Below are positions 1-59,654 of a stretch of 64,000 nucleotides of DNA, piece by piece. The notes below the pieces were generated by a model. It worked only from the letters and a program-made list of their open reading frames with translations, was not told where the DNA came from and did no database searches. Location: IMG/VR virus record IMGVR_UViG_3300029258_002996. One strand, written 5' to 3'. The position numbers were made by a program, and so were the translations under genes. The stretch is from a virus. Within the stretch, counting starts at the first letter, position 1. Each line of letters opens with the position of its first letter.

Positions 1-34
1 GGAAGAGAACTCTAGCGATCCCACGCGCGTGCTG

Positions 35-943
35 CCTCCAACCCTTCTGCTTCTTTTTATCGATTGAAAGACACTCCTCTCCAAAGGCATAGAGCTGGGC
101 CTTCTCCCCTCCAACCCTTCTGCTTCTTTTTATCGATTGAAAGACCTATCCCGGCGCTCGGATAGTGAAACTCCCTCCAACCCTTCTGCTTCTTTTTATC
201 GATTGAAAGTTGATAACGGCGGCGTTGCTGCTCAAAGAGGACCCGCAGCCTCCAACCCTTCTGCTTCTTTTTATCGATTGAAAGTCAGCCCAATAGAAAA
301 TAATACAATGGACGGACAACCTCCAACCCTTCTGCTTCTTTTTATCGATTGAAAGTCGCATCGACAATACGGCCGCAAAAAGAGCGACAATCACCTCCAA
401 CCCTTCTGCTTCTTTTTATCGATTGAAAGAAGTCAGATCGCTCCCGGTAGTAATAGTATAGCCAGGGCCTCCAACCCTTCTGCTTCTTTTTATCGATTGA
501 AAGCCAACCAGCCGAGCGCCAAGAGCACTCGGCCAACAACCTCCAACCCTTCTGCTTCTTTTTATCGATTGAAAGGATTGGGCGGGGGATTCGACTATTG
601 AAAATCTATTCTCCTCCAACCCTTCTGCTTCTTTTTATCGATTGAAAGGTCATTTGCAAATCCCATCCGGAAAATAGTGCTGTCTACCTCCAACCCTTCT
701 GCTTCTTTTTATCGATTGAAAGGGATTGAGGAGGAGATCGACGAGTGGATCGCGCAGCGACCTCCAACCCTTCTGCTTCTTTTTATCGATTGAAAATATG
801 CCGTCCTCCATCAGCAAGGACAGGATGCTGTAACCTCCAACCCTTCTGCTTCTTTTTATCGATTGAAAAAAACTATATGACGAGATCATCGATTGCATAA
901 ACAAGCACCTCCAACCCTTCTGCTTCTTTTTATCGATTGAAAA
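35..943 (-). CRISPR. CRISPR array: 13 repeats of 36 nt, 12 complete spacers (30-39 nt); positions 1-34 are probably a further partial spacer
   Basis: The + strand repeat CCTCCAACCCTTCTGCTTCTTTTTATCGATTGAAAG starts at 35, 108, 174, 249, 320, 394, 468, 540, 613, 687, 761, 834 and 908. The last three copies end in A instead of G. Minus orientation is inferred from the co-oriented cas gene and tracrRNA promoter and is less certain than the array itself. Confidence 0.98.
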
Positions 944-976
944 AGCGGTCTAAAAAACCCTTAGATTTTCAAAGAG

Positions 977-2554
977 CTACTTACTCTTTTTCGAGCGGTT
1001 CGATTTCTTCGACTTCTTACCTTTCTTAAACCCCTGTTTTTTCAGCTCTTCGTCGTAATCATCAACCGACCACTCGCCTTTTCCACGAGCCAACACGTTC
1101 ATCGCGGCCCCGACATCCAGATTCACGTACCTCTCACAGGACACGCAATGCAGAACCCACTTCTTCATCTCGTACTCGATGCCGAACTCTTCGAGCTTCG
1201 AGATGATGCACTGCATCAGTGCGTAGTACGGCCACTCCTGAATCCGATCCCAAACCGCCTTTCCCCCGACCAGCTTCTCCGGCTCGCCATCACGGATCCC
1301 CGAGAAGTCCTCGATGTAGATCTTCCCAATCCCGTGCTTGACGAGGTATTTCACGAAGTTCAAAGCTATCCACTGGTTCTTGGTTCGCCGATAGCCGTTC
1401 ACCATGTTCTCCAAAACCTTGGTCGGCAACAGGACGCGCTTGCGCCCGCGTCCCAATCGACCCGAAGCTTTGGAGTTGTATTGGTACCCTTTCCGCCTGC
1501 TCTGAACCTGCTTCAGGAAAGCCTCGATGTCCCCACCATCGTACATCCACTTCACCCCGTCCTCGGTGACCCCCACCAAGAAGTTCTTGATTCCGCGATT
1601 GATGGCGGCGCACCGTACCCCGTTCGAAACCCCCTTGGGCATCTGATAGGAAAACGAGACGAACCACTGCCCCCGATGGTTCTTCTCCACCTTCGCCGCC
1701 CCGAGCACCCACTCCCCCGACATGATCTTTTCCATCGCATCCCGTTGATACCTGTCCTTCAGGTAAAACGGGATCCGGAACTGCTTGCCACCCGGATGAC
1801 GACCCGCAGCCAGAGAAAGGCAAACCAGGTACTCGTTCTTCTTCTCGCCTTTCTCTATCCGATAGTCCTGCCTACGAATCGGAATCGGGTTCTTGTCTCG
1901 GAACGCAGGGACGCTCCGGCTCCACTGGGTCAGGATCTGAAACCTCTCTTTTTTCCACTTGCTGAAAACAGCGTGACTGAGATCAGCCGCAATCCCCGCG
2001 TTCAGCTCCGGAGCCATCTTCCGAGCCAGCGCGTAGAAGTTCCCCTCCGGAATCGGCCACGCATCCCCCTTCCGGGTAGGAAACCGACCGTGCTCCAGAT
2101 AGAAATCGTCCACGTACTTCCCGTCGATCTCCCACAGCTTTCGAGCAATAGCGTTCGCCGCCCGACAGCACCCCTTTTGCGCCTCGAAGCACGCCTTCTT
2201 CACCGTCAGCTTCTCGGTCTCCTCCTCGCTCCTCAGCTCCTCGGCCCGCTTGAAATCGATCTGGAATTTAACGCATCGAACGATCACGTCGCTCTTCTTG
2301 TACCCTTTCGATTTCCGCTTCCTCTTACCTTCCCCCTCCTCCGGTTTGGCATCCGCAACGGAACCCACGACTCTATGACCCTCCTCCTGGGAGGGCGAAG
2401 CAGAAGGGTTCCCATTTTGGGAAACGTTGGTGAGCGTCGTCGGGCTTGCTTCCCCGCTCGTAGCGGCGTGTCCGAAAACTTCATCACCTTCAGGACGTGG
2501 AGTCGCCCCAGCAGTGGTCGCGGGTTCCGTTCCAGATTCCAAACCTTGCGTCAT
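977..2554 (-). CDS. cas12f: Cas12f (AsCas12f1/C2c10-like, TnpB-derived) effector, apparently nuclease-inactive; true start may be GTG at 2368 (463 aa)
   Basis: Motifs are collinear with AsCas12f1-type proteins: DDFYLEHGRFP, ELNAG, MEKIMSGEW, DGGDIEAFLKQVQSRR, GRGRKR, IYIEDFSGI (RuvC-II E), QEWPYYALMQCIISKLEEFGI, CVSC..NLDVGAAMNV (RuvC-III D). RuvC-I reads AAINRG instead of GIDLG. The stop lies 33 nt from the last repeat. Confidence 0.88.
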   Translation of the reverse strand: MTQGLESGTEPATTAGATPRPEGDEVFGHAATSGEASPTTLTNVSQNGNPSASPSQEEGHRVVGSVADAKPEEGEGKRKRKSKGYKKSDVIVRCVKFQIDFKRAEELRSEEETEKLTVKKACFEAQKGCCRAANAIARKLWEIDGKYVDDFYLEHGRFPTRKGDAWPIPEGNFYALARKMAPELNAGIAADLSHAVFSKWKKERFQILTQWSRSVPAFRDKNPIPIRRQDYRIEKGEKKNEYLVCLSLAAGRHPGGKQFRIPFYLKDRYQRDAMEKIMSGEWVLGAAKVEKNHRGQWFVSFSYQMPKGVSNGVRCAAINRGIKNFLVGVTEDGVKWMYDGGDIEAFLKQVQSRRKGYQYNSKASGRLGRGRKRVLLPTKVLENMVNGYRRTKNQWIALNFVKYLVKHGIGKIYIEDFSGIRDGEPEKLVGGKAVWDRIQEWPYYALMQCIISKLEEFGIEYEMKKWVLHCVSCERYVNLDVGAAMNVLARGKGEWSVDDYDEELKKQGFKKGKKSKKSNRSKKSK

Positions 2555-2638
2555 CGTCTTTCACCCATAATTGCTACGTACCCTACCATCCCTATTCTAC
2601 CAAACGCCGCTCGAAACCAGCGCTTCCGAGATGGCAAT
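2380..2638 (-). ncRNA. Putative tracrRNA (ends approximate)
   Basis: The minus strand reads CCAAC-[18-nt hairpin GTTTCCCAAAATGGGAAC]-CCTTCTGCTTC (2430-2397), complementary to repeat nucleotides GAAGCAGAAGGGTTGG. There is also a contiguous 14-nt match at 2397-2410. It lies downstream of a promoter at 2645-2673. Confidence 0.7.
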
Positions 2639-2644
2639 CTAAGA

Positions 2645-2673
2645 CATATAGCAGAGAGCCAAAAAGCCGTCAA
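2645..2673 (-). promoter_or_regulatory. sigma70-like promoter (phage motif) for tracrRNA/cas12f
   Basis: TTGACG-N17 (ending CTCTCTGC)-TATATG. Confidence 0.7.
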
Positions 2674-2909: not shown

Positions 2910-3359
2910 TTATTCCCGATGCTTGTCCCGAGCGGCTCTGCGGAGAATGGCGGAGGCGCATATATCTACTACACGACTCGTTGCCTCCGGGTTCGTCTTC
3001 TCCAGCCCCTCCAAAAGACTCGAAAGATTAGGTTCCGGCATGGGCATCAACAGATTGCCGCTACCCGAGATTCTCGAAGTCCCCTTCCCGAGACCTTCGA
3101 TCTCGGGAGCCTCGTAAATCTCAGGCGCAGACCCGAGAATCATCTCGGCAATGGGCGTAAAACGAAGCTCACCATCGTCGGAAGAAACGATACCGAGTAA
3201 CACCACCTCCTCCCCGGACTCCTTGCGCCGGGTCTCCATCATCGCGGCCCCCTGAAGCCCGAAAGCTTCCTCCAGCAGCTCGAAGCTTGCCTCGCATTCC
3301 AACTTCTCGGACTCGTCCATCTCAACCTCCTTGCTGTTTTCACGATTTGGCTCGTCCAT
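2910..3359 (-). CDS. Hypothetical protein
   Basis: 149-aa ORF directly behind the promoter at 3367-3395. Confidence 0.65.
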   Translation of the reverse strand: MDEPNRENSKEVEMDESEKLECEASFELLEEAFGLQGAAMMETRRKESGEEVVLLGIVSSDDGELRFTPIAEMILGSAPEIYEAPEIEGLGKGTSRISGSGNLLMPMPEPNLSSLLEGLEKTNPEATSRVVDICASAILRRAARDKHRE

Positions 3360-3366
3360 CCTCTGT

Positions 3367-3395
3367 CATATAACACAGAGTTTTCGAGAATGCAA
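3367..3395 (-). promoter_or_regulatory. sigma70-like promoter (phage motif)
   Basis: TTGCAT-N17 (ending CTCTGTGT)-TATATG. Confidence 0.65.
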
Positions 3396-3687
3396 CAATC
3401 AAGTGCCTGGCAAGTACCCGTCAAGAAAACCTTCATCTCCGAGATAAATCTTATAACGATTCTATTTTTGAAGCACGATGCAGGTGGGAATTTTTCGAGA
3501 CAGCAGGATCCCCAATACCTACCCAATGGGACCCATTCTTTTCCGAGAGGGTTTTTCGGATTTCCGGGATTTGGCCGGGACGGGTTTGGCAGAGGTCGGG
3601 ATTGGGCGTTCAGTACTCGGAAGGGTTGGGTAGGGATTGGGTGAGGATTGGGAGGTCGTGGCGCAGCTCTACTACCGCTCAGGAGGA

Positions 3688-6066: not shown

Positions 6067-6318
6067 TTAACCCCGCACCTTGACTACAACACCTCTTTTT
6101 CCTCGTTGAGCTTTTCGGACCCTGAACTCCTTGAACCGGCTTTGGTACGAGGAGCACTTGCCGATAGCTTCCCAGAGATACTGAGCGATCTGGCCCAGGA
6201 AATCCACGTACTCCGCGTACAGCTCAGGTTCGTTCTCCCGGAGATGTTGGGCGAACCTGTAGTCCGTGTCGAGGATCTCCCGCAGCGTCTTGGTTTTGGT
6301 TTTGATCTTGCGTACCAT
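6067..6318 (-). CDS. Hypothetical protein
   Basis: GGAGGT RBS before MVRKIK. Confidence 0.55.
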   Translation of the reverse strand: MVRKIKTKTKTLREILDTDYRFAQHLRENEPELYAEYVDFLGQIAQYLWEAIGKCSSYQSRFKEFRVRKAQRGKRGVVVKVRG

Positions 6319-8110
6319 GTGAACCGACCTCCTCTTTCTTCCGGCTCCTCTCCCGGAAGCGTTTCCTGCGCTCCAGTTGATCTGGGGTGGCGTGGTAACG
6401 AAAGCAATTATCGATCTCATTCTTGCTCATTCCCAACTCAGCCCCGATCTCCTTGTAGGTTCTGCCCTGCTCGATGTAATCGATGATCAAATCTACGACC
6501 CGTTGGTTCCGCTGTCTGCTCTTCTTCTTGACTCGGCTCCGATACTTTCGAACACGTCTTCGTTGATCGCGGTCGAGATAGTGGGCTACGAGAACCCTGA
6601 TAACCTTGAACGGCAGATCGAGAACCTTTCCGATTTCCTCATGGGTGAGCCCCTTCTCGATACACTCGACAATGAATTCGCACAGATTCTTGCGATCTTC
6701 GCTGTTTCGAGGAAAACACTTCGGGCAATAACGGGAACTCGAAAACTCGGCAGCCGTGTAAAGCGCTCCGCAATTCCTGCAAAGCCTGGTACTCCAGGGC
6801 TCCTTCGCATACCCCAAAGAGAACTCCAGATCCCCCTCCGCCAGCATCAGCGCCTCGCGGACCTCGCGCTTGACGGCGGGCGAGACCGAGGGGATGGCGG
6901 CGGAGATCAACTGCGGGCTCTCGTGAAAGTTGTCCTTCTCGTACAAACAGTTGCGACAAAACCCGCGCTCCCGGACCCTCACCAAACGCCGAACGACCTC
7001 GTGGCAGCCGTCGCACCTCGTAAAATCCACCACAGCGCCCCCGAGAAGCTGCATCTCTTCTCGCGCCTCTTCGTCCTCAACCCTCCCGTCGAACCGAATC
7101 TGCCGTACCTTCCCCCACAAATCGCGCCTCTTCTCCAACGAGGTGCCCCGCCGAAGAATCTCGGAAACATACGAATCCGATATCCCAAGCTCCTCCCCGA
7201 TCTCCCGCTGAGTCCAACCCCGCTCCATGTACCCGACAATCAATCGGAGACGCTCCGCCCGCAGCTCCGCCCGCCTCTCCCTATCGAGCGGATCCCGCAC
7301 CCGCTGGGGCTGGGGTTTGGGTTTGGCGGCTTCAGAAGGTTCGAACTCGCCTGGAAACAGCTCCTTCGCGTATCTGCGAACGGTCGTGGCGCAGACGCCG
7401 AGCTTTCGGGCGATGCTCTCGTGTGAAAGACCCTCCTGCCGGTACTGAGCGATCTTTTTCAGCCGCTCCCCCTTCTTCCTCTTGCGCTCCCTCCTCTTCC
7501 AAGCTTTCCGAAGCTCGATCTGATGTCGCGCCTCCTCTTTCCTCCGCCTCAGATCCCCCTCGATTCTCCGCTCGCGCGCCTGCTGCTCGGACGTGGCGTG
7601 CCGAAGATATTCCCTGATGGCGGCCACGGACATGTCCGTCTCATCGGAGATCTCCTTGCGCGTCTTGCCGAGTTCGAGAAGATCCAGAACCCTGTCGACC
7701 TTCTCGATGCGCTCGGCTTCCCGCCTCTCCTCCAGCTCCTTCAACTGCCGAGCTACTTCCGCCTTCCTCGCTTCCTTTCGCGCCTGCCGTCTTCGAACCT
7801 CCTCCGCTTCCTTTTCCGCCCGCTTAGCGGCTTTTTCTCTCCCTTCGATCTTTGCGCGAGCCTCGAAATCCAAATCGTCCAACAACTTCTCGAAATATCG
7901 AATGCGCTCCTTCGGCGCTTGCTTGGCCAACCAAGTAAACTTTCCGATCAACGAAGACTGTTTTTTTCCGAAACGATTTATGTATTTTTGATAATGACCC
8001 GGACAATGCCCAGCGTGAAGATCGGGATAACGTACCTTGGCCTCGCAGCCGGGCACAACGCACTTGAAAAGCCCCTCCAGATCTACCAACTCCTCTCCGG
8101 ATTTCTCCAT
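6224..8110 (-). CDS. Multi-HTH DNA-binding protein (five sigma-region-4-like HTH repeats plus Zn ribbons)
   Basis: GKTRKEISDETDMS, GLSHESIARKLGVC, GWTQREIGEELGIS, GLTHEEIGKVLDLP, GRTYKEIGAELGMS; Cys pairs CDGC/CRNC and CRNC/CPKC. Confidence 0.8.
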   Translation of the reverse strand: MEKSGEELVDLEGLFKCVVPGCEAKVRYPDLHAGHCPGHYQKYINRFGKKQSSLIGKFTWLAKQAPKERIRYFEKLLDDLDFEARAKIEGREKAAKRAEKEAEEVRRRQARKEARKAEVARQLKELEERREAERIEKVDRVLDLLELGKTRKEISDETDMSVAAIREYLRHATSEQQARERRIEGDLRRRKEEARHQIELRKAWKRRERKRKKGERLKKIAQYRQEGLSHESIARKLGVCATTVRRYAKELFPGEFEPSEAAKPKPQPQRVRDPLDRERRAELRAERLRLIVGYMERGWTQREIGEELGISDSYVSEILRRGTSLEKRRDLWGKVRQIRFDGRVEDEEAREEMQLLGGAVVDFTRCDGCHEVVRRLVRVRERGFCRNCLYEKDNFHESPQLISAAIPSVSPAVKREVREALMLAEGDLEFSLGYAKEPWSTRLCRNCGALYTAAEFSSSRYCPKCFPRNSEDRKNLCEFIVECIEKGLTHEEIGKVLDLPFKVIRVLVAHYLDRDQRRRVRKYRSRVKKKSRQRNQRVVDLIIDYIEQGRTYKEIGAELGMSKNEIDNCFRYHATPDQLERRKRFRERSRKKEEVGSHGTQDQNQNQDAAGDPRHGLQVRPTSPGERT

Positions 8111-33058: not shown

Positions 33059-35929
33059 CTACCAGTTCTGCGCTATCGCGAGAAGAACGTCCTCGATGAG
33101 CGCCTTTGACCCCTTTGCGATGAAGTGAGGAAGCTCTTTCAACAGCTCGTCCGCGCTCCACTCCCGGAAATGGTACTCCTCGCCGTTGCTGAGCTTGATG
33201 TCGATTGAAGGGAGACTCGGATCGTAATTCACTTCACCGCCAGCAGCACGCTCGGATTCCGCACGCTCGATGTACTGCTGGACCATTTCGTCTTCCGATA
33301 CCTGAGCCCCCCGTCGATCAAAAGGGCGCTTATCCCCCTTCTTCGAGGCGCTCTTTTCTTCATAAATAAACTGCTCCCAAACACCTTGATTGCCTCGAAG
33401 AGACTCCAAAGCATCTTCGAAGATTTCCTGCTGCTCCTCCTCATCTTCAGGGCGTGGCACCTCATCGTAAGGATGCGAGTTCGCTATGGCGGACTTGAGG
33501 TGTACGTAAGTCACCGGTTCCGTATCCGCAGCACCTTCCATAATGTAGTCGTACAGTTGTTCCCGAAGCTCGTCGTCCTCGTAGACAAAATCCTCGAAAA
33601 CAGGGACAGTATCGATCAGATGCAGTTCGGCAGACGGAGTTAACTCTGCGACGTGAACGCCGAGATTTGCATCGAACAGGTAACCGCTGTAGACCTTCTT
33701 GATGCCTTTAGGAAGAGAAGTCCAGTATTCCGTATCGTCCATCAGGTAGATACGAAGATCCATCATCTTCTGCTCTTCTTGAGCCTTCTTCTTCGAGGCG
33801 CTTTCCACTTCCCATCCTTCTTCCGCTTCCCCTACCGCGCCTCCGCTAACCAAAGTCTCCCTACCAAAGGATTCGAAAATACTTTCGTTCCCGCAAGCAT
33901 TTCTTTGAGCCTCTTCAAGTGAGTCATATTCCGCCGCTTGACCTCGATCATTAGTATAAGAACTTAAAGAACCGGGACGAGACACATACATGCCGTCTTC
34001 ATTTCTTTTAAGCACGTACTTACCTACTTTCTTCGAGGCGATCCTCTCCGTCCCCGGGCGCATCCGTCCTCGGTTGCTGCCGTAAGGATTGATGATGAAC
34101 CCATCGTTTGTCAGGTGGACCATCCAGTGATGCGACGAGCAAGTGGAGAGCCTCTTCAGGATGTAGTTTTTCTCGACGTGCGCGTAGGAACGCGGGAACG
34201 TGTCGAGACCTTCCTCCTCGGCCTGGACCATGTCCCCGAGAACCAGATCATAACCGGGCGGAGTGAACTTCTGAAGCTCGGGTTCACGCTTCGAAGTGGG
34301 GTCGAAGGGATCGAACTGCTGAGCTTTTTTATCCATTTTATCACCTGCTTTTCTAACGCCAGTTACGTACTCAGCGATGATTCTCGCCGCGAGCTTACGA
34401 CCCGTTGCCGTCTGCATTCCGGACTGACCCACGTAGGTCACGAGATCCTGAGTCAACTGATGCCAGTCGATTTCCTGGTCCGGGTAGATTTGCATCGAAA
34501 GAGGTCGCACGGCATCATAGACCATCGAGACCTGCTCCTCGAAGGTCGGAGGAGCAAGAGAAGCTTCGATGTAACTCAACATCTCAGGTTGCTGGACTAC
34601 CTGGTTGTACATATCCGCAGTGGGAGTGGCGGCTCCGTACTGAGGTTGGGTTTGTTCTGTCGGTGCATAGATGTCCGTCTGCTGCACCATCGTGGGATCC
34701 GTAGCTACGTCAGGACGACCGCCCTGCTCGGGAGAGAGGACGCGAGTTTCTTGAGCTTCCCTCTTAGCCCACATCTTCTTGAAGGTCCTCGGAAGCGGCT
34801 CGATATCATCTACCGTCACCCGGTATTCCATTCCCTTGGCATTGACAATCATCGTGTTCGCGTCCGGGTCCAACTCGACAATCTTTCCTCGGATGGAACC
34901 ATCGAGACCGTTGAACTTCACCGAGTCTCCCGCTTCAATGGGAGTTTTGGTGTTCGGGTACATGAGGTGTGTCGGCGTAACCTCGGGACTCTCCTCGTCC
35001 GAAGGGGGCTCCGAAATGTCGGTGTTGATCTGAGCAGACCTCTGAACTCCCTTTCCCTTCTCAACCACCTCGACAATCGATTCCTCGAACCCGGAGGTCT
35101 CCATGCCCGTCGCGGGATCGATCCCCGAAAAACCGGGCTTGCCGCCCCACAGCTCGGGGTGACGTTCGGTGACGATGGCGGTCGTGAACTCGCCCGGGCT
35201 CACCTCGTACTGAACGAGATCCCCGATCTCGTAAGGAACACCACCAGGCTCCTGCCCCATCATGGGAAAGAGTTGCTCCTCTTTTCTCCGGTAGGTCCTC
35301 CGGTTGTAGTTTTCGTCCATCGGAACGCGCCGAGGTTGATAACCCATTTCGTTTCGTCGCTCTACCGCGATGTCGAGTTCCTCCCCTTGGTTCGGGGCTT
35401 GGTATTGCCTCCGAAGGGGATCCAGAAAGTACGAGCTATTGCGACGGATGATCTCGTCGATAGCCCCTTGTCCGAGAACGTACAGTCGATCCTCGAACAT
35501 CATCGTCGAGGGGGGAACCACTGCTCCGGATACTACGGGCACAAAAATCGTCGCATTCCTAACAGCACCTGAAGTCGTCGCAAAGCGGAGATTGAAGAGC
35601 AGCTCACCAGAGACGAGCTGGGATTCGTCGTGCCTGGCGTACTTGAGCTTGCGGGCTTGGCGGAACTCGACCCTCGGCACCAACGGCCAGTCGAGGACGT
35701 TCACCACTTCCTGCGTGGCAATCGCAGCTTCCTGAATGTAGGCGTTCAGATCCCGCACTCCAGACTTCATACCGACCTGCTTGACCTTGGAAAAGATGTC
35801 ATCGAGATCGACTTTCTCCGAAGTCTTCGTCATCTTCTGCCGCATTGCGGCCATGCGCCTGTCGTAATCGTCGAACAGAGGATGTTCGGCAACGTGCTTT
35901 TTTTTCTTCAGTTCCTCAAAAGTCGGCAT
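33059..35929 (-). CDS. 956-aa acidic multi-module protein (putative polyprotein)
   Basis: Linkers QRSAQ, KREAQ, KKAQ, KKKAQ, RRGAQ. Confidence 0.8.
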   Translation of the reverse strand: MPTFEELKKKKHVAEHPLFDDYDRRMAAMRQKMTKTSEKVDLDDIFSKVKQVGMKSGVRDLNAYIQEAAIATQEVVNVLDWPLVPRVEFRQARKLKYARHDESQLVSGELLFNLRFATTSGAVRNATIFVPVVSGAVVPPSTMMFEDRLYVLGQGAIDEIIRRNSSYFLDPLRRQYQAPNQGEELDIAVERRNEMGYQPRRVPMDENYNRRTYRRKEEQLFPMMGQEPGGVPYEIGDLVQYEVSPGEFTTAIVTERHPELWGGKPGFSGIDPATGMETSGFEESIVEVVEKGKGVQRSAQINTDISEPPSDEESPEVTPTHLMYPNTKTPIEAGDSVKFNGLDGSIRGKIVELDPDANTMIVNAKGMEYRVTVDDIEPLPRTFKKMWAKREAQETRVLSPEQGGRPDVATDPTMVQQTDIYAPTEQTQPQYGAATPTADMYNQVVQQPEMLSYIEASLAPPTFEEQVSMVYDAVRPLSMQIYPDQEIDWHQLTQDLVTYVGQSGMQTATGRKLAARIIAEYVTGVRKAGDKMDKKAQQFDPFDPTSKREPELQKFTPPGYDLVLGDMVQAEEEGLDTFPRSYAHVEKNYILKRLSTCSSHHWMVHLTNDGFIINPYGSNRGRMRPGTERIASKKVGKYVLKRNEDGMYVSRPGSLSSYTNDRGQAAEYDSLEEAQRNACGNESIFESFGRETLVSGGAVGEAEEGWEVESASKKKAQEEQKMMDLRIYLMDDTEYWTSLPKGIKKVYSGYLFDANLGVHVAELTPSAELHLIDTVPVFEDFVYEDDELREQLYDYIMEGAADTEPVTYVHLKSAIANSHPYDEVPRPEDEEEQQEIFEDALESLRGNQGVWEQFIYEEKSASKKGDKRPFDRRGAQVSEDEMVQQYIERAESERAAGGEVNYDPSLPSIDIKLSNGEEYHFREWSADELLKELPHFIAKGSKALIEDVLLAIAQNW

Positions 35930-35932
35930 CGA

Positions 35933-36283
35933 TTACCTCGGACTTTGTCTAGGTATGGGTTGAGTCATCGGAGAAGGAGCCGGATTTCTAATCTTACGTC
36001 TCCGATCTTTGTCGTTCTGTCTTTGTTGGTCCCGAGTCGTTTGTACCGGCTCCGAGCCAAACGGATTGTCCACTCCGATAATCAAGCTGGATTTTACTCT
36101 TATGTTTGCATAACCGCCCGATTTCTTGGGATTCCAAAACGGAATCTCGTCATTCCCGGATCGAATATCGGCCCACAGCTCGTCGATTGTCTTATGCTCG
36201 CACAACACCGAAAACGTAGCTCCGGAACAAAACAAACGATACGGGTACAGAACCTCGGGAATTTGAACCAAGCTCGACATCAA
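35933..36283 (-). CDS. Hypothetical protein
   Basis: Operonic ORF. Confidence 0.6.
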   Translation of the reverse strand: MMSSLVQIPEVLYPYRLFCSGATFSVLCEHKTIDELWADIRSGNDEIPFWNPKKSGGYANIRVKSSLIIGVDNPFGSEPVQTTRDQQRQNDKDRRRKIRNPAPSPMTQPIPRQSPR

Positions 36284-36852
36284 AGCTCATCCTCGATCAA
36301 TGCGCGAACGATGTTGTCGGACCTTCGTTCATGCTCTAAATTTCGGTCGTCGATTTCGGAAAAAGCGAAAATGGCGATTTTGTCTCCGGGGCTCACTTCA
36401 TTCAGATCGCAAAATCCGCCATTGACTTCGATCACTCCATCGCAATTTCGGCAGCCCCACCTCTCCTTCGAGTTGACCTGAGTATTTCTCTGGACTTTGG
36501 AAACAACGCTATCTTTCAGGAACAACAGGTCTAGGGGGAACTTCACGGATCCTTGATGGAACACGACATCGTGATATCCCGGATAGGGGAAGTACAGACC
36601 GCAATCCTCCGGCAGACAATCGTAGTTTTGCAAGCCGACTCTCTTCTTTTCGAGGGTATCGGCGACATCGCAATGAACTTTGATCGATTTGTCCAGCCAC
36701 ATCGCGGTGACGTGGGTTACCGGAACAGGTTTGAGATCATCCGTCAGTCGCACAACTCCGGCTTCGAACATGTGGACATGCGGCGGCCCGTCCCAGTTGA
36801 TCAGGAGGCCGTAGTCCTCTTCGAACTGCCGTGCGTGCAACTTGACCAGCAT
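36280..36852 (-). CDS. DUF192-family protein
   Basis: VADTLEKKRVGL...GLYF...VKFPLDLLF...VIEVNGG. Confidence 0.85.
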   Translation of the reverse strand: MLVKLHARQFEEDYGLLINWDGPPHVHMFEAGVVRLTDDLKPVPVTHVTAMWLDKSIKVHCDVADTLEKKRVGLQNYDCLPEDCGLYFPYPGYHDVVFHQGSVKFPLDLLFLKDSVVSKVQRNTQVNSKERWGCRNCDGVIEVNGGFCDLNEVSPGDKIAIFAFSEIDDRNLEHERRSDNIVRALIEDEL

Positions 36853-37256
36853 TACTTCTTCCGAGTCTTCCTCGTTTTCTTGGACTTCTTCTCTTTTGGA
36901 GGCTCGGGTTCCTCTTTCGGCGCAGGCTCCGTCTCCGGCTCGGGTTCCGGAGAGGCTGCTTTCTTCTCGGCCTTCTTCGGCTTCTCCTCGGAATCCTTCT
37001 TCTCAAAGAGCTTAGGCACCCTCGAATGGAGCATATGCAGCAGCTCAGGCTGCTCCTTCAGGTCCGCCACGCTCATTCCCGTAAGCTCAACCAGATCCAC
37101 CGAGGACTGCTTCGTCACCACCACCGGAATCGCAGAGGAACGTAGCAATCTGCGTTTCTTGTGCCGAGACATTTCGTCGGGAAGGTCCACTTTCGGATAG
37201 AGCGTGAAGCTCACCGAACCTTGACCCGGGTTGAAAACTACGAATTTTTCAGTCAT
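36852..37256 (-). CDS. Hypothetical protein
   Basis: AAGGAG RBS; operonic. Confidence 0.65.
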   Translation of the reverse strand: MTEKFVVFNPGQGSVSFTLYPKVDLPDEMSRHKKRRLLRSSAIPVVVTKQSSVDLVELTGMSVADLKEQPELLHMLHSRVPKLFEKKDSEEKPKKAEKKAASPEPEPETEPAPKEEPEPPKEKKSKKTRKTRKK

Positions 37257-37268
37257 GAATCTCTCCTT

Positions 37269-40200
37269 TTATTCAAAAAGGGCCGACATCGATTTGTTCT
37301 GCGGAAGACCGAACAGCTTGCGGGCGTCCGACAGATTGAGCCCCAGCTCCAGGAGCAGACGACGGGATAGCTCGGCCACCTTCTGCGTGGTTACTTGCTC
37401 CGGGCTCGTAGCGTTCACCGGCATCGACTGAACTTCTGCCAGAATCTGAAACGCCTGCTGCTCGGCGGGCATCTCCTTCGGCATCCCCTCCCCGAACTCA
37501 GGCATCGGGGCCGCAGGTTGGGTTAGCGCGGGAGTCTCTGGAGCTGCGGGAGCTGCCGGGGCCATCTGCGCCCGGCGCTTGTCGATCTTTTTCTGGATCA
37601 GGAGCGCCATCCGCTTGGCGACCGGGGGCGACACCGCAGGTCCCGTAGGCGCGGCAGGAGCCGGTACCCCAGGCCCCGGAGCCGATGGGCCGGGCGTGGC
37701 TGGAGCAGGCCCCGGAGCCTTCGGGGCACCTGGCATCTGTTTCTCGGGACCTTTCTTCTTGGTCCCGGGCTTGTTGAGCTTGATTTCGAGGACCTTCTTC
37801 TTGTCCTCGTCATCCATCAGCGAGATGTCCTCGGGAGTCCACCCGAGAGCCTGGAGACCCTCGTCTCCCGTTCCCGGAGACATTCCGGGGGCCTTGGGGG
37901 CTCCTGTAGCGCCGGGAGCCTTCGGAGCACCAGGAGCGGCTGGAGGAGCCGCAGGAGCAGGTCCGGGAGCCGGAGCGGTAGGCGCCGGTGCGGGAGCAGC
38001 CGGTTGGGCCATCGGAGCGGCGGCTTGGGCCTCGCGCTTGGCGCGGATCCATGCCTCGCGGCGCTTCTTGCGACCGGCTTTTCCCTTCAGTCCCTTTGGA
38101 ATACCCATCGGGCCTTTGCCTTTCCCCCGCATCTTCCCTTCACCTTTGCCCTTGGGAAGCTTCTTCTCCGGCTTCGGCTTGGTGACATCCCCATCCTCGG
38201 TGAGCTGCTTCCCGTACTCGCCCGCGTAGCCCTGCCAGTACTCCTTGGCGGATTCGTCGACCGCTTCCATCTCGCCGCCAGCAGAATTGCCATACCTACC
38301 TACTTTATTGTTTTCACGAACTTCCCATTCATCCTCCGGACCAAAGTCACTTGGAGGATCGTAGTCGGAACCTTCCTCGTCCAGAATACGACGCAATCTT
38401 TCAGGAGAAACAATCTGAACCATGCGACCGAGATCTTTATCGTATCTATGAGTAATCTCTGATGCTTCCATCTCGCCGCCAGCGGACTCTTCCTTCTTGG
38501 AGCTTGGGCACCCGGCTGCGGCTTGGCGAGATTCCTTATCCCAGCCTTGTCGCTTAACGTACTCTTCGTACTCCTCACGGTACTCCTCGTATTCTTCGAG
38601 AAGTTCGTCAGCTCCATCTGTCATGTACATTTCGAAAAGGTAGTCCAACGCATCCTCTTCTGTATCGAAAACAGACAAATCAGTTCGATCCATATAGCCA
38701 GGAGCGGACATGTAAGCGCCGTAACCTTGACGAAGCTCGATATCGTGAATCTCGCTATTCTCCAGATAGTCTCGAAGGGAAGTCCCCTCGACGCTCGCCC
38801 TCCCATCTTTCTCGATCTCCCGTTTCAACTCTTCGATCTCTTCTCCATCGACATACTCAGCCGAAACAGATTCACCACCCATCGGACCATCTACCTCAAC
38901 CCACTCACCATGTTCAACGAAAGGCTCCATGAACGCGGCCTGCTTCCGAGCCTGAACGGCAGGAGCTTGCTCCATCGGAGCCTGACCTTCTACCTCACCC
39001 GAGCCGGTCGGTTCGCTCCCTTCCTCGGGTTGAGCTGGGCGAAAAGGGCTCCAGTCCACCTCCTCCCCGCCAAACGCCATCGTCAGGGCGTGAAGCTCCT
39101 CGGCGGACTCGGCCTCAATGTCGCGACCGTAGCCGCCCTCGGGAGACCACTTCTCGCGAAGCTTGGGGCCAGCGACCTTCCAGTTGATCGCGCCAGGCTT
39201 CAAATCCCCGTTCCCGACGAGCATCCAAGCGAAGTCTTTAAGATCGTCGAGCTTGAACTCATCAACTTCCGCAACGAGCCGCGAAGCAATCTTAATGAAG
39301 TCGTCAGTGACATCCAGATCACCGCGCAAGATGGAAGCAATCAACTCGGACTTTTTCTTCTTGTCTTTGCCACCCGGAGTGTAGCCCTCGCCCTCCATCC
39401 AGTTGGCCAACGCCCATGGGTTGTCGATCTCGGGATCTCCCTTCATCTCCTTGACCGTCTTCTCCCACTTCTTCGGAACCTTGGCCTCGGTGTTGCCACC
39501 GGCTTCATCCATCGCACGGCGAGCGTGGCGCTGAGTCTTCTCGGTCGGCAGGAACACGTTGTTCGCAGCCCACTTGTCCGGATCCATGATGTCCCGGAGA
39601 AGCTGCTCGCTCGGACGTGCCCGTTTCATTTCCCGGTAGATATGGGAAGCATCGGGGGGTGAGTCGAAGGAGTCGACGATCTTGGAACCTTCCCGCTCTT
39701 CCCCTAAAAACTTGGAAATGAGCATCGGCTGAATGCCGGAAACGTCTTTGTAGTCAGTACGCATCAACTCAGCAGCGTGCTGCATCGTCTTGGTATACAA
39801 AGGTTCTATACCAGGGATCAGTAAGATGTAGTTGTAACCTTTTTCCTGCATCCCACGAGCGACCTCCTCTTCGTCCATCGCCCTGCGACGACCTTCCTTC
39901 TCATCTCGCAGATCCTTGCCCTCACCCTTCTCCTGGTCGATGACCTTCGACGGATCCGAGGGAGTCTCGCCCTTGTTCAGGTTCTTGCCAGGCTCCTCCT
40001 GGACCTTGACCTTGAAGGGGTCTTTACCGCCGTCTTCGGCACGGCGACGAGAACCCTTACCCGGGTATGAACGAAGTCGATTCTCAAAGGACGTCCAATC
40101 TACCGGACCTTTTGGAGTATCCCAATCGGGATTCTCTCCAGGAGCGGCGATGAAATAATCAGACCACTCCGAGATTTTTCCGTTTTCGATTACGACATTA

Positions 40201-40850
40201 TCCAAATTTTCGGGAGCATTCTCGACTAGGTCCCCTAAAGTCCCTATGTAGTTGGATTCATCGTCGTATACTTCTAATTCCGACCAATGAATTCCCGATT
40301 CGGCTCGGCGACGAGCATCCTTTTCGTTCCGCATCCTTCGATCACCCCAGTTTGTATCCGCGCCACCGGTATCCTTCCCGAGACTCGTGTCCGGAAGACC
40401 GCCACGTCCTTCGTCCTGTCGAGGACGCTTGTTGATGGCCGGGTCGAAGTTTCGAGGATTTCGATCCGAAGTATCTGGACCGAGCCGTGGGTTCGAGGTC
40501 GAAGTACCCTTCGAATCCGTCCCCTTCGGAGTCTCGTTCACGGTCGGATTGTACTTTGGATATTCCTTGGTCGAGGTATCCTTTTCGAGAACTTCGGCAG
40601 GCGAAGGAAGGCTCTGAGAAGGTCCTTGCGTCTCGTTCACACCCGGGATGGGCATGTCGGCTTCCTTGCAGAACCGGCGCACCTCCTCATCGAGTCGGCC
40701 AATATGGGTGGCGAAGCCATCGCCCTCGGGTGGCCAGATCTCTACATCGTCGTTGTCGTTGATTCGCATCAACCAGCCGCCAGGATTCTCGACAGTCTGA
40801 CCGTCAAAGAGTGCGCTCTTTACCTGCCTCGGATTCAATTCCTTTGCCAT
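37269..40850 (-). CDS. ~1190-aa multi-module protein (putative polyprotein/internal head protein)
   Basis: Likely start MAKELN at 40850; linkers RRRAE x2, RRRAM, RRAM, RKQAA, KREAQ, KRRAQ; IDNPWALANWM and SAPGYMDRTD modules; Pro/Ala-rich tail. Confidence 0.8.
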   Translation of the reverse strand: MAKELNPRQVKSALFDGQTVENPGGWLMRINDNDDVEIWPPEGDGFATHIGRLDEEVRRFCKEADMPIPGVNETQGPSQSLPSPAEVLEKDTSTKEYPKYNPTVNETPKGTDSKGTSTSNPRLGPDTSDRNPRNFDPAINKRPRQDEGRGGLPDTSLGKDTGGADTNWGDRRMRNEKDARRRAESGIHWSELEVYDDESNYIGTLGDLVENAPENLDNVVIENGKISEWSDYFIAAPGENPDWDTPKGPVDWTSFENRLRSYPGKGSRRRAEDGGKDPFKVKVQEEPGKNLNKGETPSDPSKVIDQEKGEGKDLRDEKEGRRRAMDEEEVARGMQEKGYNYILLIPGIEPLYTKTMQHAAELMRTDYKDVSGIQPMLISKFLGEEREGSKIVDSFDSPPDASHIYREMKRARPSEQLLRDIMDPDKWAANNVFLPTEKTQRHARRAMDEAGGNTEAKVPKKWEKTVKEMKGDPEIDNPWALANWMEGEGYTPGGKDKKKKSELIASILRGDLDVTDDFIKIASRLVAEVDEFKLDDLKDFAWMLVGNGDLKPGAINWKVAGPKLREKWSPEGGYGRDIEAESAEELHALTMAFGGEEVDWSPFRPAQPEEGSEPTGSGEVEGQAPMEQAPAVQARKQAAFMEPFVEHGEWVEVDGPMGGESVSAEYVDGEEIEELKREIEKDGRASVEGTSLRDYLENSEIHDIELRQGYGAYMSAPGYMDRTDLSVFDTEEDALDYLFEMYMTDGADELLEEYEEYREEYEEYVKRQGWDKESRQAAAGCPSSKKEESAGGEMEASEITHRYDKDLGRMVQIVSPERLRRILDEEGSDYDPPSDFGPEDEWEVRENNKVGRYGNSAGGEMEAVDESAKEYWQGYAGEYGKQLTEDGDVTKPKPEKKLPKGKGEGKMRGKGKGPMGIPKGLKGKAGRKKRREAWIRAKREAQAAAPMAQPAAPAPAPTAPAPGPAPAAPPAAPGAPKAPGATGAPKAPGMSPGTGDEGLQALGWTPEDISLMDDEDKKKVLEIKLNKPGTKKKGPEKQMPGAPKAPGPAPATPGPSAPGPGVPAPAAPTGPAVSPPVAKRMALLIQKKIDKRRAQMAPAAPAAPETPALTQPAAPMPEFGEGMPKEMPAEQQAFQILAEVQSMPVNATSPEQVTTQKVAELSRRLLLELGLNLSDARKLFGLPQNKSMSALFE

Positions 40851-40891
40851 TTTATTCCTCGACCTTCCTTTGTGAAAAAGGTTTTTAGTTT

Positions 40892-41953
40892 TTATTCGAA
40901 ATCCTCTTCGTCGTCCTCGAAACCCCTCAACCACAGCTTCGCTTCAGGATGCTCGGACGCTCTCAGAGTTTGAACAAAATCCTCAAGTGTATCAAACTCT
41001 TCAGACCAGTATTGCCACCCTTCGGTAATCGCGTTCATATAAGCTTCTTCAATCTGGTATTGATCTGCGTCGGGACCGAACTCTTCCCTGATTTCGTTCC
41101 AGAGACCTTCGTCCAACTCTTCGGAAAGTTTGTCATTGAAGAAAGCGTCATGAGCCTTTTCAAGACCGTGATCGATACCCCGTCCCGTAATGACGACGTA
41201 GGAGTCCGCCTCCATCTCGTCGCCGTCATAAACCCCAACTACGGAGACGGGGGAATCAGCATCTTGGGGGTAGAAAACGTCTTGATCGACGATGTCCTTG
41301 ACTGGATACTGGCTGAGGAGAGCGTCAAGGTTGGCTTTCTTTCTCCGACCCTCACGTCCGAAGTCCTCTTCGTCGTCCTCGAACTCTTCTTCCTCGGGTT
41401 TGTCCCAGTCCGTGTCGTACTCTTCTCCAAAGAGTTCGTGAACCTCTTTGTAATTGAGAGTGAGTGGGTATTGGTCGAACTCGAAAGGTCCGAAGTACCA
41501 AATAAGATCTCGATAAGCCTGCCCACGTTCGGCAGGGTCGTCCGACTTCAATTCGTTTACGAGTTCTTCTTTAGAAGACCCTACACTATCGGCAACCCCT
41601 TCCAAATCCTTCGCCCAGAAAGGTTCATCAAAGCGGGAAACTCCTCGATTAAATGTCAAGGCAACGTCGGGAACTAGATAACCGTCGATCTCCGCGAACT
41701 TCTCGATGTCAAATCGAGAGATGGTCCAGGTGGCTTGGTACTCGTTCTCCGCATCTGGATTCCAGTCCAGATCGTTCTCGACGTACCAGCCTTCGGGACC
41801 GTACTGGGTCTGGACAATCAAGAGACCGCCGTAGTCAATGAAGTTCACATCTCCGAGATTGGCGATAATGTCAGGTTTGTCACTCTTGCCTTCCTGAGCT
41901 TTGACGTTCTTGGAGATCCTCTTCAATGCTTCGTCAGGGAGTACTTGTCTCAT
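40892..41953 (-). CDS. Acidic two-module protein
   Basis: KNVKAQ, then a GDVNFIDYGG module, then RRKKAN, then a second module. Confidence 0.75.
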   Translation of the reverse strand: MRQVLPDEALKRISKNVKAQEGKSDKPDIIANLGDVNFIDYGGLLIVQTQYGPEGWYVENDLDWNPDAENEYQATWTISRFDIEKFAEIDGYLVPDVALTFNRGVSRFDEPFWAKDLEGVADSVGSSKEELVNELKSDDPAERGQAYRDLIWYFGPFEFDQYPLTLNYKEVHELFGEEYDTDWDKPEEEEFEDDEEDFGREGRRKKANLDALLSQYPVKDIVDQDVFYPQDADSPVSVVGVYDGDEMEADSYVVITGRGIDHGLEKAHDAFFNDKLSEELDEGLWNEIREEFGPDADQYQIEEAYMNAITEGWQYWSEEFDTLEDFVQTLRASEHPEAKLWLRGFEDDEEDFE

Positions 41954-44319
41954 CTTTCCAACCCCTCTTCCTCGCGCATTTCGGCAAGGTCGTTCAGAAT
42001 TTCGAGCAGCTCAGGGTCTCCCGCGTAGGCCAACTCCGTCTCCATTCCCGCAGTATGTGGGATTTCCAACCCGTGATGCTCGTGACTGTCGTACCACCCT
42101 ACTCCGTGACCCATTCCCTCCATCGCGAGGTAGTGACCGAACTCGTCGCGGTTGAAGTCCTCATCCTCACCAGGAGGAATGAAGGTTTCCAGGTCGACGT
42201 TGTTGGAGCGCTCGATATCTCGGTAGAAGTTGGTTGCAAATTCGATAGCTTCGGGTGGAGTCTCCGGGGCAATGTTCATCAACTCGGCCCCCATGAAGTT
42301 CGGGGACTCGATTTCGACATCCACTTCATCGGCAAGGCGGTCAGCCTCCTCCCATTCGTCTGCCCACGAAGAGACAAAGAAGGCGCGAGCCATCGCTTCG
42401 ACAATAGTAGGATCCGGTTCACCCGCTTGAGCTTGACGACGAGCCTCGTGTCCAGGAGTTCCGAGAAGGTTTAACACATCCTTCAAATCCCACAAAAGCT
42501 CCGTACCTTCATCCAGAGCTTCCCGGTATTCCCTTTTCTTTGATTCATCCGCGACTACGTCAGGTTGCTTGATATTCACCTCGTACCATCTAACCGCGTC
42601 CTCAAGCTCCTCATGCGCGGCTTCGATTACGTCTTTTTCTACCGGATGCCCTGCGGACCAGTTAGATCCCAGCGCATAGAGTGCAGATCCTTGCCCTCCG
42701 TGCCATTTGAGAAGATCTTCCGCAAGCCCCCGATCTGGCTTGATTTCTTCTTCTTGAGCTTGACGACGAGATCCCCTCCAAGCAGGACCCCAAAGCTCAC
42801 CCTCGGGGGGTTCCTCTTCGCGGGAGGGCTTGTCCCAATCGAAATCCTCGACGAGGTGGAAGTTCCCGTGATCGGAAACGTGCCAAATATTTGGCCAATA
42901 CTGTTGACGGTTCCCCTCTTCTCGAATGGCATCTTCAATGCCATCCCACTCGACAAACTCTCCAAGATGCTTTCCTGCGAAGTAGACATCTTCGCCCCCA
43001 AGATATGAAGCGGACTGGATGAAAACATCATCTTCGTCGGGCTCAAAATCGTCTCCCTGAGCTTGGCGACGAGCAACCGCTCCAGAACCCATCCCGCCAT
43101 GACCAGGACCAGCTTCAGGACCCGCCTGCGCTTTACCTTTTCCTACCTGACCAGGTCCGCGCTTGGGTTTCTTGACTTCGTGGAGAGATTCTTTTTCAGC
43201 TTGCTGCTGAGACTGAGGTCGAGGGGGAAGGGAGGGATCTGGTTCGAGACCGAGGAGATCTCCCATTGCTTCACCCGGACGCATGTTGAGCGCAGGATCT
43301 TCCCCTAAAGGATCCGAAGGGAAGTAATCCTCAAGAGGATTCCAAGTAGCCCATTCGGGTGCCCCGCTCATCGCACGCTCTTCTTCGGGACTTAACCATC
43401 TCTGTGAAGGATCCGAAAATGTTTCTTCCGGTGTTTTCGCGAATGGCGCATCCTGCTGCACCGTTGCAGGTCCTCGCGGAGTCTGAATGTACTTGACGCC
43501 CGGTTCATTGCCGGACGCCTGAGCGTCCCTACGGTAAAAAGGGCGCTTCCCACCCCCTCGACGAGCATTCGGACCTTGACGCTTGCGCTTGGGGGGAGGA
43601 TTCTCCTTACGGAACTCCCCGGAATCACCACCCCCGACCTCGTGCTTGATCTTCTTCTGCACCCAGTCGGCAGTCTCCTCGCCATATTCCAGGTCAGGCT
43701 CTTCCCCGTTTACCATTGAAAGAACAAACCGGCGAGCCTTTACCTGATGTGGGAGAGGACCGTTCAAACCGTGCTTTAGGATCAGACGGTCGTAGTCTTC
43801 CTGAGTTTCGATCTGAGAGGCGATGCGCTGGAGGTCGTTGATCGGGAGAGTCGCGTAACCTTTCTGACCGATTTCGACGATCACCTCCGCCGCCGCCGAC
43901 TTGGGGAAGTTCCGTTTGTAGTGATCGTGGAGCGTGAGGTAGGAGCTGGCAGTAATGGACCCGGTGCGGTTCTTCTTCCACATCCCCTCCAGATGACCGT
44001 ACAAAGCCCGAAGACCGTGATCAGTCCCGAGGTCCTTGCGCGCCTTCACGATTCGATAGGCGTCGAAGACGGAAGCTACGGGAAGATTTCCGTTGATCTG
44101 CCCCGCTTCTCGATCAAGCTCCTCGGCGATCTTCTTCCGAACCTGCTCGACATGGGGAATATTCAACCGGAACTCCCGGGAATTCGCCTCATCTTGAGCT
44201 TGACGGCGAGCGACGGCTCCCGAGTAGAGTTTCGCAAGCCTGCCGACTCGAAGATCACCGACAGATTGCTGGGAAAAATCCGCGAGGTCCTGTTTGACGT
44301 TACGCCCGAATCTATTCAT
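41950..44319 (-). CDS. 789-aa multi-module protein (putative polyprotein)
   Basis: RRQAQ x4 and RRDAQ separate unrelated acidic modules. Confidence 0.8.
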   Translation of the reverse strand: MNRFGRNVKQDLADFSQQSVGDLRVGRLAKLYSGAVARRQAQDEANSREFRLNIPHVEQVRKKIAEELDREAGQINGNLPVASVFDAYRIVKARKDLGTDHGLRALYGHLEGMWKKNRTGSITASSYLTLHDHYKRNFPKSAAAEVIVEIGQKGYATLPINDLQRIASQIETQEDYDRLILKHGLNGPLPHQVKARRFVLSMVNGEEPDLEYGEETADWVQKKIKHEVGGGDSGEFRKENPPPKRKRQGPNARRGGGKRPFYRRDAQASGNEPGVKYIQTPRGPATVQQDAPFAKTPEETFSDPSQRWLSPEEERAMSGAPEWATWNPLEDYFPSDPLGEDPALNMRPGEAMGDLLGLEPDPSLPPRPQSQQQAEKESLHEVKKPKRGPGQVGKGKAQAGPEAGPGHGGMGSGAVARRQAQGDDFEPDEDDVFIQSASYLGGEDVYFAGKHLGEFVEWDGIEDAIREEGNRQQYWPNIWHVSDHGNFHLVEDFDWDKPSREEEPPEGELWGPAWRGSRRQAQEEEIKPDRGLAEDLLKWHGGQGSALYALGSNWSAGHPVEKDVIEAAHEELEDAVRWYEVNIKQPDVVADESKKREYREALDEGTELLWDLKDVLNLLGTPGHEARRQAQAGEPDPTIVEAMARAFFVSSWADEWEEADRLADEVDVEIESPNFMGAELMNIAPETPPEAIEFATNFYRDIERSNNVDLETFIPPGEDEDFNRDEFGHYLAMEGMGHGVGWYDSHEHHGLEIPHTAGMETELAYAGDPELLEILNDLAEMREEEGLER

Positions 44320-53711: not shown

Positions 53712-53986
53712 GCCTGGCTCCGGGCCAACAGAGAAGGGGAGTTCGTGACGGTGATGAAGGTCACGAGGAACGGGTAGATTGCCTTGGTGAACTTCTCCAA
53801 TTCATCCATTACGGCCTCTGGAGTTGAAGATGGGTTTGCGTGCGGAGAAGTCTTGAGAAAACGAAGAACGACGTACTTACAGATCAGATCAATATCCTCG
53901 ATTAGGAGATCCTCACCGAGCTGGATGAGCTGGTTTCGAACCAAGTGAAAGTAGGCTGTGCTACTGGGATCGAGCGTCGATTCCAT
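53708..53986 (-). CDS. Hypothetical protein
   Basis: Operonic ORF. Confidence 0.55.
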   Translation of the reverse strand: MESTLDPSSTAYFHLVRNQLIQLGEDLLIEDIDLICKYVVLRFLKTSPHANPSSTPEAVMDELEKFTKAIYPFLVTFITVTNSPSLLARSQA

Positions 53987-54992: not shown

Positions 54993-54994
54993 CT

Positions 54995-58743: not shown

Positions 58744-58752
58744 GATCTTCCC

Positions 58753-59646: not shown

Positions 59647-59654
59647 GACTCCTC

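Follow-up and report, generated by a model that had tools for sequence, protein, structure and literature searches.

A phage-borne clade of Cas12f1-like proteins lacking the RuvC-I aspartate: putative RNA-guided silencers with an in-frame tracrRNA

Introduction

Cas12m is monomeric and independent of a tracrRNA, and the TldR proteins derive from TnpB and use a single guide. Natural nuclease-dead Cas12 proteins are already known and form an established trend, of which the phage clade described here is a variant. Silencing without cleavage has been reported for Cas12m and Cas12c (PMC12669027, PMC11656645). As for the Cas12f lineage, the dCas12f proteins of Hoffmann et al. (PMC13472631) are described as C-terminally truncated, with the loss of part of RuvC, with 365 aa in PDB 9n9c; the characterised dCas12f-sigmaE systems come from Bacteroidota, use single guides, have no tracrRNA and act with a sigma partner, and an array-linked dCas12f cluster from the same study was proposed to repress genes. 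Finally, branches of Cas12f and V-U with altered active sites have been noted (PMC10691335).

The locus considered here lies at one end of a 64,000-nt stretch of the virus record IMGVR_UViG_3300029258_002996, called the window in what follows. It is real and non-random: an AsCas12f-like gene, a CRISPR array and a tracrRNA occur together on one phage. Judging from its sequence and from models of the effector, the system is probably an RNA-guided DNA-binding silencer that would act on host defence or on rival elements with no cutting of DNA.

The phage and the locus

Besides many unknown genes, the window has those of a family A DNA polymerase, RecA, SbcC, a clamp loader and an SNF2 helicase. 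The 182-kb contig L028 is the same element, and the window polymerase has 59-60% identity to the polymerases of IMG/VR viruses 205-212 kb long; together with the gene content, this contig and this kinship show the carrier to be a large phage, some 180-210 kb long. Pfam searches for terminase and portal proteins in related virus records gave no match.

The features of the locus, with the evidence for each, are the following.

1..34, minus strand: part of spacer 13, which has 40 nt in L028 (comparison with L028)
35..943, minus strand: CRISPR array, with 13 of its 36-nt repeats inside the window (repeat search; orientation from the repeat 3' end and the pairing with the tracrRNA loop)
977..2554, minus strand: RuvC-I-dead Cas12f1-like effector (ORF, homology, profile and fold model)
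1115..1117, minus strand: RuvC-III Asp, kept (alignment)
1165..1166, minus strand: junction of a 69-nt in-frame deletion, with the first zinc-finger Cys pair lost (comparison with intact contigs)
1310..1312, minus strand: RuvC-II Glu415, kept in the window (alignment; Glu in 83 of 109 clade members)
1598..1600, minus strand: Asn319 at the position of the RuvC-I catalytic Asp (alignment; Asp lost clade-wide)
2378..2396, minus strand: 7-bp hairpin at the tracrRNA 3' end, containing a Shine-Dalgarno-like sequence before the in-frame GTG at 2368 (sequence)
2397..2410, minus strand: anti-repeat, 14 nt fully complementary to the central part of the repeat (complementarity)
2425..2511, minus strand: structured tracrRNA scaffold in the coding frame (covariation, conservation)
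2502-2498, minus strand: loop of the tracrRNA 5' hairpin, pairing with the repeat 3' end (cognate pairing test)
2645..2673, minus strand: sigma70-like phage promoter motif, TTG-N17-TATA with a conserved pre--10 element (shared motif)

The effector

The ORF at 977-2554 encodes 525 aa in the window and 548 aa in the intact allele (P0033). Its closest known protein is AsCas12f, found by sequence as PDB 8j3r (E 3e-24), and the PADLOC profiles Cas12f and Cas12u3 match it with E values of 4.5e-52 and 5.7e-51, respectively. The AlphaFold2 model of the intact allele had a pLDDT of 85, and AsCas12f was also its best fold match in Foldseek (8j12, E 8.6e-32; TM 0.74 to the target). Residues 1-70 are predicted to be disordered, and the core, of about 430 aa, begins near position 2287. 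Besides the ATG at 2554, the frame has an alternative GTG start at 2368, and in the two closest relatives the gene was called with a downstream start. Regarding its oligomeric state, the homodimer model, built without RNA, scored 0.42 against 0.00 for the best control, a value that may reflect likeness to solved Cas12f dimers; of the reference cases, 20 of 30 solved pairs and 1 of 23 single chains attained the mark used for this score. Contacts agreed between runs to at least 75% with a pLDDT of at least 76, and the predicted interface runs through the N-terminal helical lobe.

Asn319 (codon 1600-1598) aligns with the RuvC-I Asp of AsCas12f, the same position that is Ala in PDB 7wju. This agrees with the initial annotation, which had read an Asp-to-Asn change at this codon and had described the RuvC-II Glu and the RuvC-III Asp as intact; both are present in the alignment. 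The annotation had also asked whether the change is clade-wide, and had named closest homologs that all retain the Asp as the case that would speak against its reading: the opposite was found, as the Asp occurs in 0 of 109 clade members (N in 78, H in 14, T in 7, R in 7, Q in 2 and C in 1), against 39 of 40 outgroup Cas12f proteins. The RuvC-II Glu is present in all outgroup proteins and in 83 of the 109 members, the others having Asp, Ala, Ser, Pro, Gly, Val or Gln, while RuvC-III is Asp or Glu in 109 of 109. Asp416 is kept in 98 members and Glu440 in 87; in addition, the clade has its own conserved acidic insertion in the lid, of about 11 aa, and conserved surface acids.

The family counts about 110 members with intact ORFs, 30-49% identical to the query, and the clade and four further Asn-bearing relatives form one monophyletic group (support 0.94), set off by a long branch. 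In the RuvC region, codon positions 1, 2 and 3 gave values of 0.77, 0.81 and 0.67, the third position being the most variable. The loss of the RuvC-I Asp reads as an old inactivation in a maintained gene and not as decay, because the ORFs have stayed intact at this degree of divergence from the query. No clade member was found in 185,579 GTDB genomes by a pattern-based, non-exhaustive search; two clade loci lie in IMG/VR virus records, the other annotated neighbourhoods look phage-like, and the clade is apparently restricted to viruses.

The conservation of the RuvC-III Asp, of Asp416, of the zinc finger and of the acidic lid insertion leaves some room for an altered chemistry. One form of it, an active site that is rearranged and not dead, so that the protein would be a nickase or a nuclease of single-stranded DNA or RNA, is improbable. 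The invariably acidic RuvC-III position and the frequent retention of Asp416 and Glu440 would suit such an enzyme, and rearranged sites are known in TnpB (PMC10691335); however, the rearrangements in that work concern RuvC-II and RuvC-III, whereas in the clade the RuvC-I position takes six different residues, none of them acidic, and RuvC-II has accepted Ala, Ser, Pro, Gly, Val and Gln.

The zinc-finger deletion

The initial annotation had reported that half of the zinc finger is missing, and had taken this loss, with the RuvC-I change, as two separate nuclease lesions. The half finger is indeed absent from the window assembly, the deletion being of 23 aa (69 nt, junction 1166/1165, with 2-nt microhomology) and not of about 25, but it is confined to this one assembly. 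Five other contigs of the same phage have the full zinc finger: two in P0032 (Logan), two in P0033 (ENA) and L005 (JGI), the last with a 1-nt frameshift. L028 is otherwise identical to the window across the 12.5 kb compared. All four cysteines are kept in nearly all clade members, so that the C4 zinc finger is present in the intact allele and in the clade and absent in the window assembly; its loss as a clade feature is ruled out, and the two-lesion argument falls with it. Private to the window assembly, the 69-nt deletion stems either from faulty assembly or from a rare variant, and is therefore no evidence for the function of the system; the window allele, with half of its finger gone, may be crippled or mis-assembled.

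These defects bear on the reading of the locus as a decaying TnpB/Cas12f pseudogene, or an assembly error, with no function. The deletion and the frameshift in L005 would fit it, as would the arrays that are degenerate or missing at a few clade loci (L006, L009, L011, L013 and L029). Against it stand the roughly 110 diverged yet intact ORFs, the variability of the third codon positions in the RuvC region and a tracrRNA that covaries with the repeat; decay can thus fit the deletion allele of the window alone. For the clade it is largely refuted, and as a general explanation it is hardly credible.

The tracrRNA and its in-frame position

The whole tracrRNA spans about 2511-2378, or some 135 nt, of which about 90 nt form the conserved scaffold. 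Covariation supports its structure: 17 of 24 pairs changed on both sides, 0 of 500 shuffles reached the score, and controls with slid positions collapsed. The scaffold is conserved once per locus, also in loci held out from the model. As for its pairing with the repeat, the five nucleotides of the loop matched the repeat 3' end completely (5/5) in 14 of 14 cognate pairs, compared with 42% of non-cognate ones (permutation p 5e-5), and loop and repeat end switch together among three variants; for the repeat of the same locus, the anti-repeat (2410-2397) takes first or second rank in 11 of 12 loci. It should be noted that the p values overstate certainty, because related loci are not independent. 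The resulting layout of two tracrRNA-repeat duplexes resembles that of Cas12f and Cas12k guides; a search of Rfam with the tracrRNA gave no match.

The initial annotation had assigned the locus its own promoter as well as a tracrRNA. While covariation bears out the second, the first stands as a promoter-like motif found six times in the window, always on the minus strand, and shared by six phage units, the copy at 2673-2645 lying upstream of the ATG at 2554; a generic promoter scanner made no call at that site.

The scaffold is also coding. The effector frame is open across it in 17 of 21 loci, with the ATG 13-52 nt upstream and often preceded by a Shine-Dalgarno-like sequence, while of the 42 cases in the two remaining frames a single one is open. 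The scaffold length is a multiple of three in 17 of the 17 in-frame loci (84-96 nt) and in 0 of the 4 loci that are not in frame. Conservation in this region has no codon periodicity (0.75, 0.75 and 0.71), and the encoded peptide is predicted to be disordered; the conserved entity is therefore the RNA. A conserved protein domain at the N-terminus was considered and rejected on these two grounds, and also because the motif persists where it is out of frame.

From these lengths and frames, selection appears to keep the scaffold translatable, and since in 17 of 21 loci the tracrRNA falls within the 5' part of the coding region, a single transcript likely carries tracrRNA, effector and array. The ribosome site of the GTG at 2368 falls inside the last tracrRNA hairpin. 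This is an unusual dual-coding layout with a possible feedback role, and a literature search found no description of an in-frame tracrRNA or of the phage clade.

The CRISPR array and its spacers

The array ends 33 nt from the effector stop codon and has 12 complete spacers in the window, all different and of 30-39 nt, plus part of a 13th. In L028 the full array counts 14 repeats and 13 spacers, the 14th repeat being degenerate and just outside the window; the near-invariant array of at least 13 repeats with all-different spacers, as first annotated at this distance from the gene, is confirmed. The three gene-proximal repeats have a one-base variant in common, which is consistent with spacer gain at the gene-proximal end. 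Most related loci likewise have an array immediately after the gene and in its orientation, and the 3' end of the repeat is conserved among them. The first repeat overlaps the effector stop codon in at least six loci, which suggests that the arrays may have grown out of the 3' end of the gene. A plus-strand array, hinted at by the array ending and by the variant repeats near the gene, was excluded by the conserved repeat end and by the covariation of the pseudoknot. A search of the window and of two related virus records turned up no cas1, so the acquisition of new spacers probably relies on a host Cas1-Cas2.

Regarding their targets, the 13 spacers of the window phage had none in phage and plasmid records or in four related viruses, an exact scan of IMG/VR with spacer 3 only returned no target, and the translated window spacers found none in Pfam, PHROG and NCBIfam. 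Self-targeting spacers were absent from the window, from the loci and from two full virus records. Spacer 3, which may resemble the C-terminus of an AlpA/excisionase protein, gave only a non-significant match to the excise gene of a Gordonia phage (E 0.1).

A lead comes from a relative, L014, one spacer of which matches two rhuM genes over 36 of 41 nt (E 0.007 each). The mismatches are mostly synonymous and the 5' flank is T-rich in both genes; the translated spacer matches Pfam RhuM (E 0.0015), with 14 residues identical to those of the Enterobacter gene. The Thiodictyon copy is flanked by the gene of a DNA methyltransferase and, downstream, by that of a helicase; a roadblock at this point would leave the methylase expressed and shut off the helicase, the latter presumably a restriction subunit. 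This match is a lead only, because it concerns one spacer of another locus, and the genes matched are homologs and not the true target.

The spacers have no strand bias (43 of 92, with a classifier accuracy of 60-87%), which argues against a complex that binds RNA. Such a binder, or a decoy that jams the host CRISPR machinery, is very improbable as the role of this complex: a sequestering role was proposed for a phage Cas9 with a dead RuvC (PMC11656645), but here the tracrRNA co-evolves with its own repeat and not with a foreign one.

Neighbouring genes

Among the 21 loci, a neighbour family is shared by 4 at most, and none of these families includes a near neighbour of the gene in the window phage. 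Neither Tn7-like tnsB, tnsC and tniQ nor a transposase was found among the window ORFs of at least 90 aa (coding strand), and the flanks of L028 have no Tn7 genes. Likewise, no linked pair of an ECF sigma factor and an HTH protein emerged, with no conserved neighbour and no sigma region 2 nearby. To the left of the array, which the initial annotation had left for inspection, the 9 kb of L028 contain small hypothetical genes only, with no cas, Tn7 or sigma gene; as far as examined, its statement that cas1/2/4, Tn7 and sigma genes are not adjacent holds on this flank as well.

This bears on the possibility that the dead effector does the targeting for an unlinked factor of phage or host origin (an activator, a recombinase or a nuclease) that it recruits, in the manner of Cas12k-Tn7 or dCas12f-sigma-E. 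The clade-specific lid insertion and the surface acids could serve such recruitment, and the sigma-E precedent arose within the Cas12f1 lineage (PMC10691335, PMC13472631). It is nevertheless unlikely, given the sparse sharing of neighbour families, none of them near the gene of the window phage, and the lack of a transposase in the window; a 628-aa protein with multiple HTH motifs (6224-8110) matches sigma region 4 but not region 2.

Proposed mechanism

Silencing by binding rather than by cutting is the preferred reading because the catalytic residue was lost while the array and the tracrRNA were kept. The initial annotation had also proposed a binding-only effector; the RuvC-I loss, the drift at RuvC-II, the fold, the covarying tracrRNA and the kept arrays speak for it, and only its two-lesion argument does not stand. 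In the proposed scheme, the phage promoter would drive one transcript on which the start codon is followed by the tracrRNA scaffold, which would be translated in frame into a disordered N-terminal tail, and then by the effector and the array. The tracrRNA and the crRNAs would then be excised by a presumed processing route and would pair through the 5-bp loop-repeat pseudoknot and the anti-repeat duplex. These RNAs would load a Cas12f homodimer, the RNP and its dimeric state being predicted, and the loaded dimer would form an R-loop at a PAM that is probably T-rich. Left uncleaved, the R-loop may keep host defence genes and rival mobile elements from being transcribed or replicated; binding with no cut would let the phage hit host genes while the chromosome stays unbroken.

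A narrower version is offered tentatively, as somewhat less than an even bet: phage-specific, tracrRNA-dependent dead Cas12f silencers would shut host restriction or defence operons by a polar block of transcription, and the dual-use transcript, with a tracrRNA that is also coding, would set the dose of the effector. As the tracrRNA is coding, loading it or cutting it out would destroy the effector's own mRNA, a presumed feedback.

If silencing by binding is correct, a large and apparently virus-restricted lineage joins the short list of natural CRISPRi effectors, and the finding bears on whether phages counter host defence by gene silencing that is programmable and non-lethal. With a core of about 430 aa, a 135-nt scaffold and roughly 110 natural variants, the clade is a resource for compact binding tools.

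Comparison with known systems

The closest system is AsCas12f/Cas12f1, of the V-U3 group and type V-F1 (PDB 8j12, 7wju and 8dzj; SpCas12f1, OsCas12f), with which the clade shares the fold and the zinc finger, as well as 36-nt repeats, a tracrRNA-dependent guide and the lack of linked cas1/cas2, and possibly the dimeric state that the model predicts. The features that define Cas12f1 membership are present in profile, fold, adjacent array and tracrRNA, while the RuvC triad is N-E-D and not D-E-D. Unlike Cas12f1, to which it has 22-28% identity, the clade has lost the RuvC-I Asp, has gained the lid insertion of about 11 aa, has its tracrRNA upstream and inside the reading frame, and is phage-borne and not found in GTDB genomes by the pattern-based search.

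The dCas12f-sigmaE systems and the array-associated dCas12f cluster (Hoffmann et al., PMC13472631; PDB 9n9c) are also natural nuclease-dead Cas12f proteins; the clade differs from dCas12f-sigmaE by its tracrRNA, by the retention of both RuvC-III and the zinc finger, and by the lack of a sigma gene, the array-linked cluster being compared by its description only. Cas12m (V-M) is likewise a compact Cas12 that is carried by mobile elements and silences through binding, with no cutting (PMC11656645, PMC12669027), but it is distant from the effector, with 9-10% identity and a fold match of E 5e-12 against 9e-32 for AsCas12f, and it is not the best match by profile or fold. TldR, the TnpB-like nuclease-dead repressors (10.1101/2023.11.30.569447), are phage-encoded dead RNA-guided repressors too, whereas the clade has a multi-spacer CRISPR array and a tracrRNA. 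Cas12k (V-K CAST) also has a dead RuvC and depends on a tracrRNA; the clade has no Tn7 genes and only a weak structural match to it. As for the TnpB of IS200/IS605, the effector scored 47 with NF040570 against a cutoff of 100, and its gene has an array and a tracrRNA and no transposase neighbour.

Given the array-linked cluster of PMC13472631 and the altered-site branches of PMC10691335, the clade may already have been catalogued unnamed, possibly within V-O, V-P or V-U24/43/44 (altered RuvC). In conclusion, by analogy the effector would work like Cas12m or TldR, yet it descends from the V-U3 Cas12f1 lineage.

Regulatory context and other genes of the window

The CRISPR module is a member of a regulon defined by a shared promoter-like motif that occurs in six copies in the window, with a conserved element preceding the -10 box. 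As for regulators, one large protein with helix-turn-helix (HTH) repeats lacks sigma region 2 and is a possible candidate for a phage transcription regulator. The corresponding features are:

2673, 3395, 8165, 15526, 22940 and 31228, minus strand: promoter-like motif
6224-8110, minus strand: 628-aa protein with several HTH/sigma region 4-like repeats and Cys pairs

Elsewhere on the minus strand, genes for a host-like RecA and DnaX clamp loader (53964-61880), each product exceeding its NCBIfam cutoff, lie next to a family A polymerase, and the large proteins of 956, 1221 and 789 aa (33059-44319) had no PHROG match.

Arrays and tracr scaffolds in the relatives

In seven relatives (L002, L008, L010, L019, L022, L023 and L025), the first CRISPR repeat overlaps the effector stop codon, and there is no separate leader between effector and array. 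The arrays of L006 (11270-11550), L011, L021 and L023 have short, irregular spacers and eroded repeats, and they resemble decaying or mini-arrays. Three relatives have second arrays with a related repeat, 3-5 kb from the effector, for which no second tracr scaffold was found:

L014:14560-14900
L015:16486-17307
L017:11200-11750

Regarding the tracr scaffold, in locus L020 (824-909) the effector is preceded by it at a distance of ∼1.7 kb, and other ORFs occupy the interval; in L004, which is more distantly related, a weak match to the scaffold (3035-3583) is located behind the array and not within the gene. Four Asn-bearing proteins (P0148, P0168, P0171 and P0174) all branch with the RuvC-I-dead clade. 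In L005, another contig of the same phage, a 1-nt deletion in the effector gene (position 6311), probably a sequencing or assembly error, truncates the product, P0034.

Spacer matches

Spacer 3 of the phage array (723-760), read on the plus strand, resembles the C-terminal end of AlpA/excisionase proteins from integrative elements; its search returned a sole, non-significant match, the excise gene of a Gordonia phage. A spacer of the relative L014 (11673-11714) matches rhuM-family genes, with a T-rich 5′ flank, and one of these genes sits within a methyltransferase-helicase operon.

Comparison with TnpB

Finally, a related 212-kb virus (L040) carries, in place of the dead Cas12f-array system, a TnpB (1429-2784) with an intact RuvC-I Asp and without an array.
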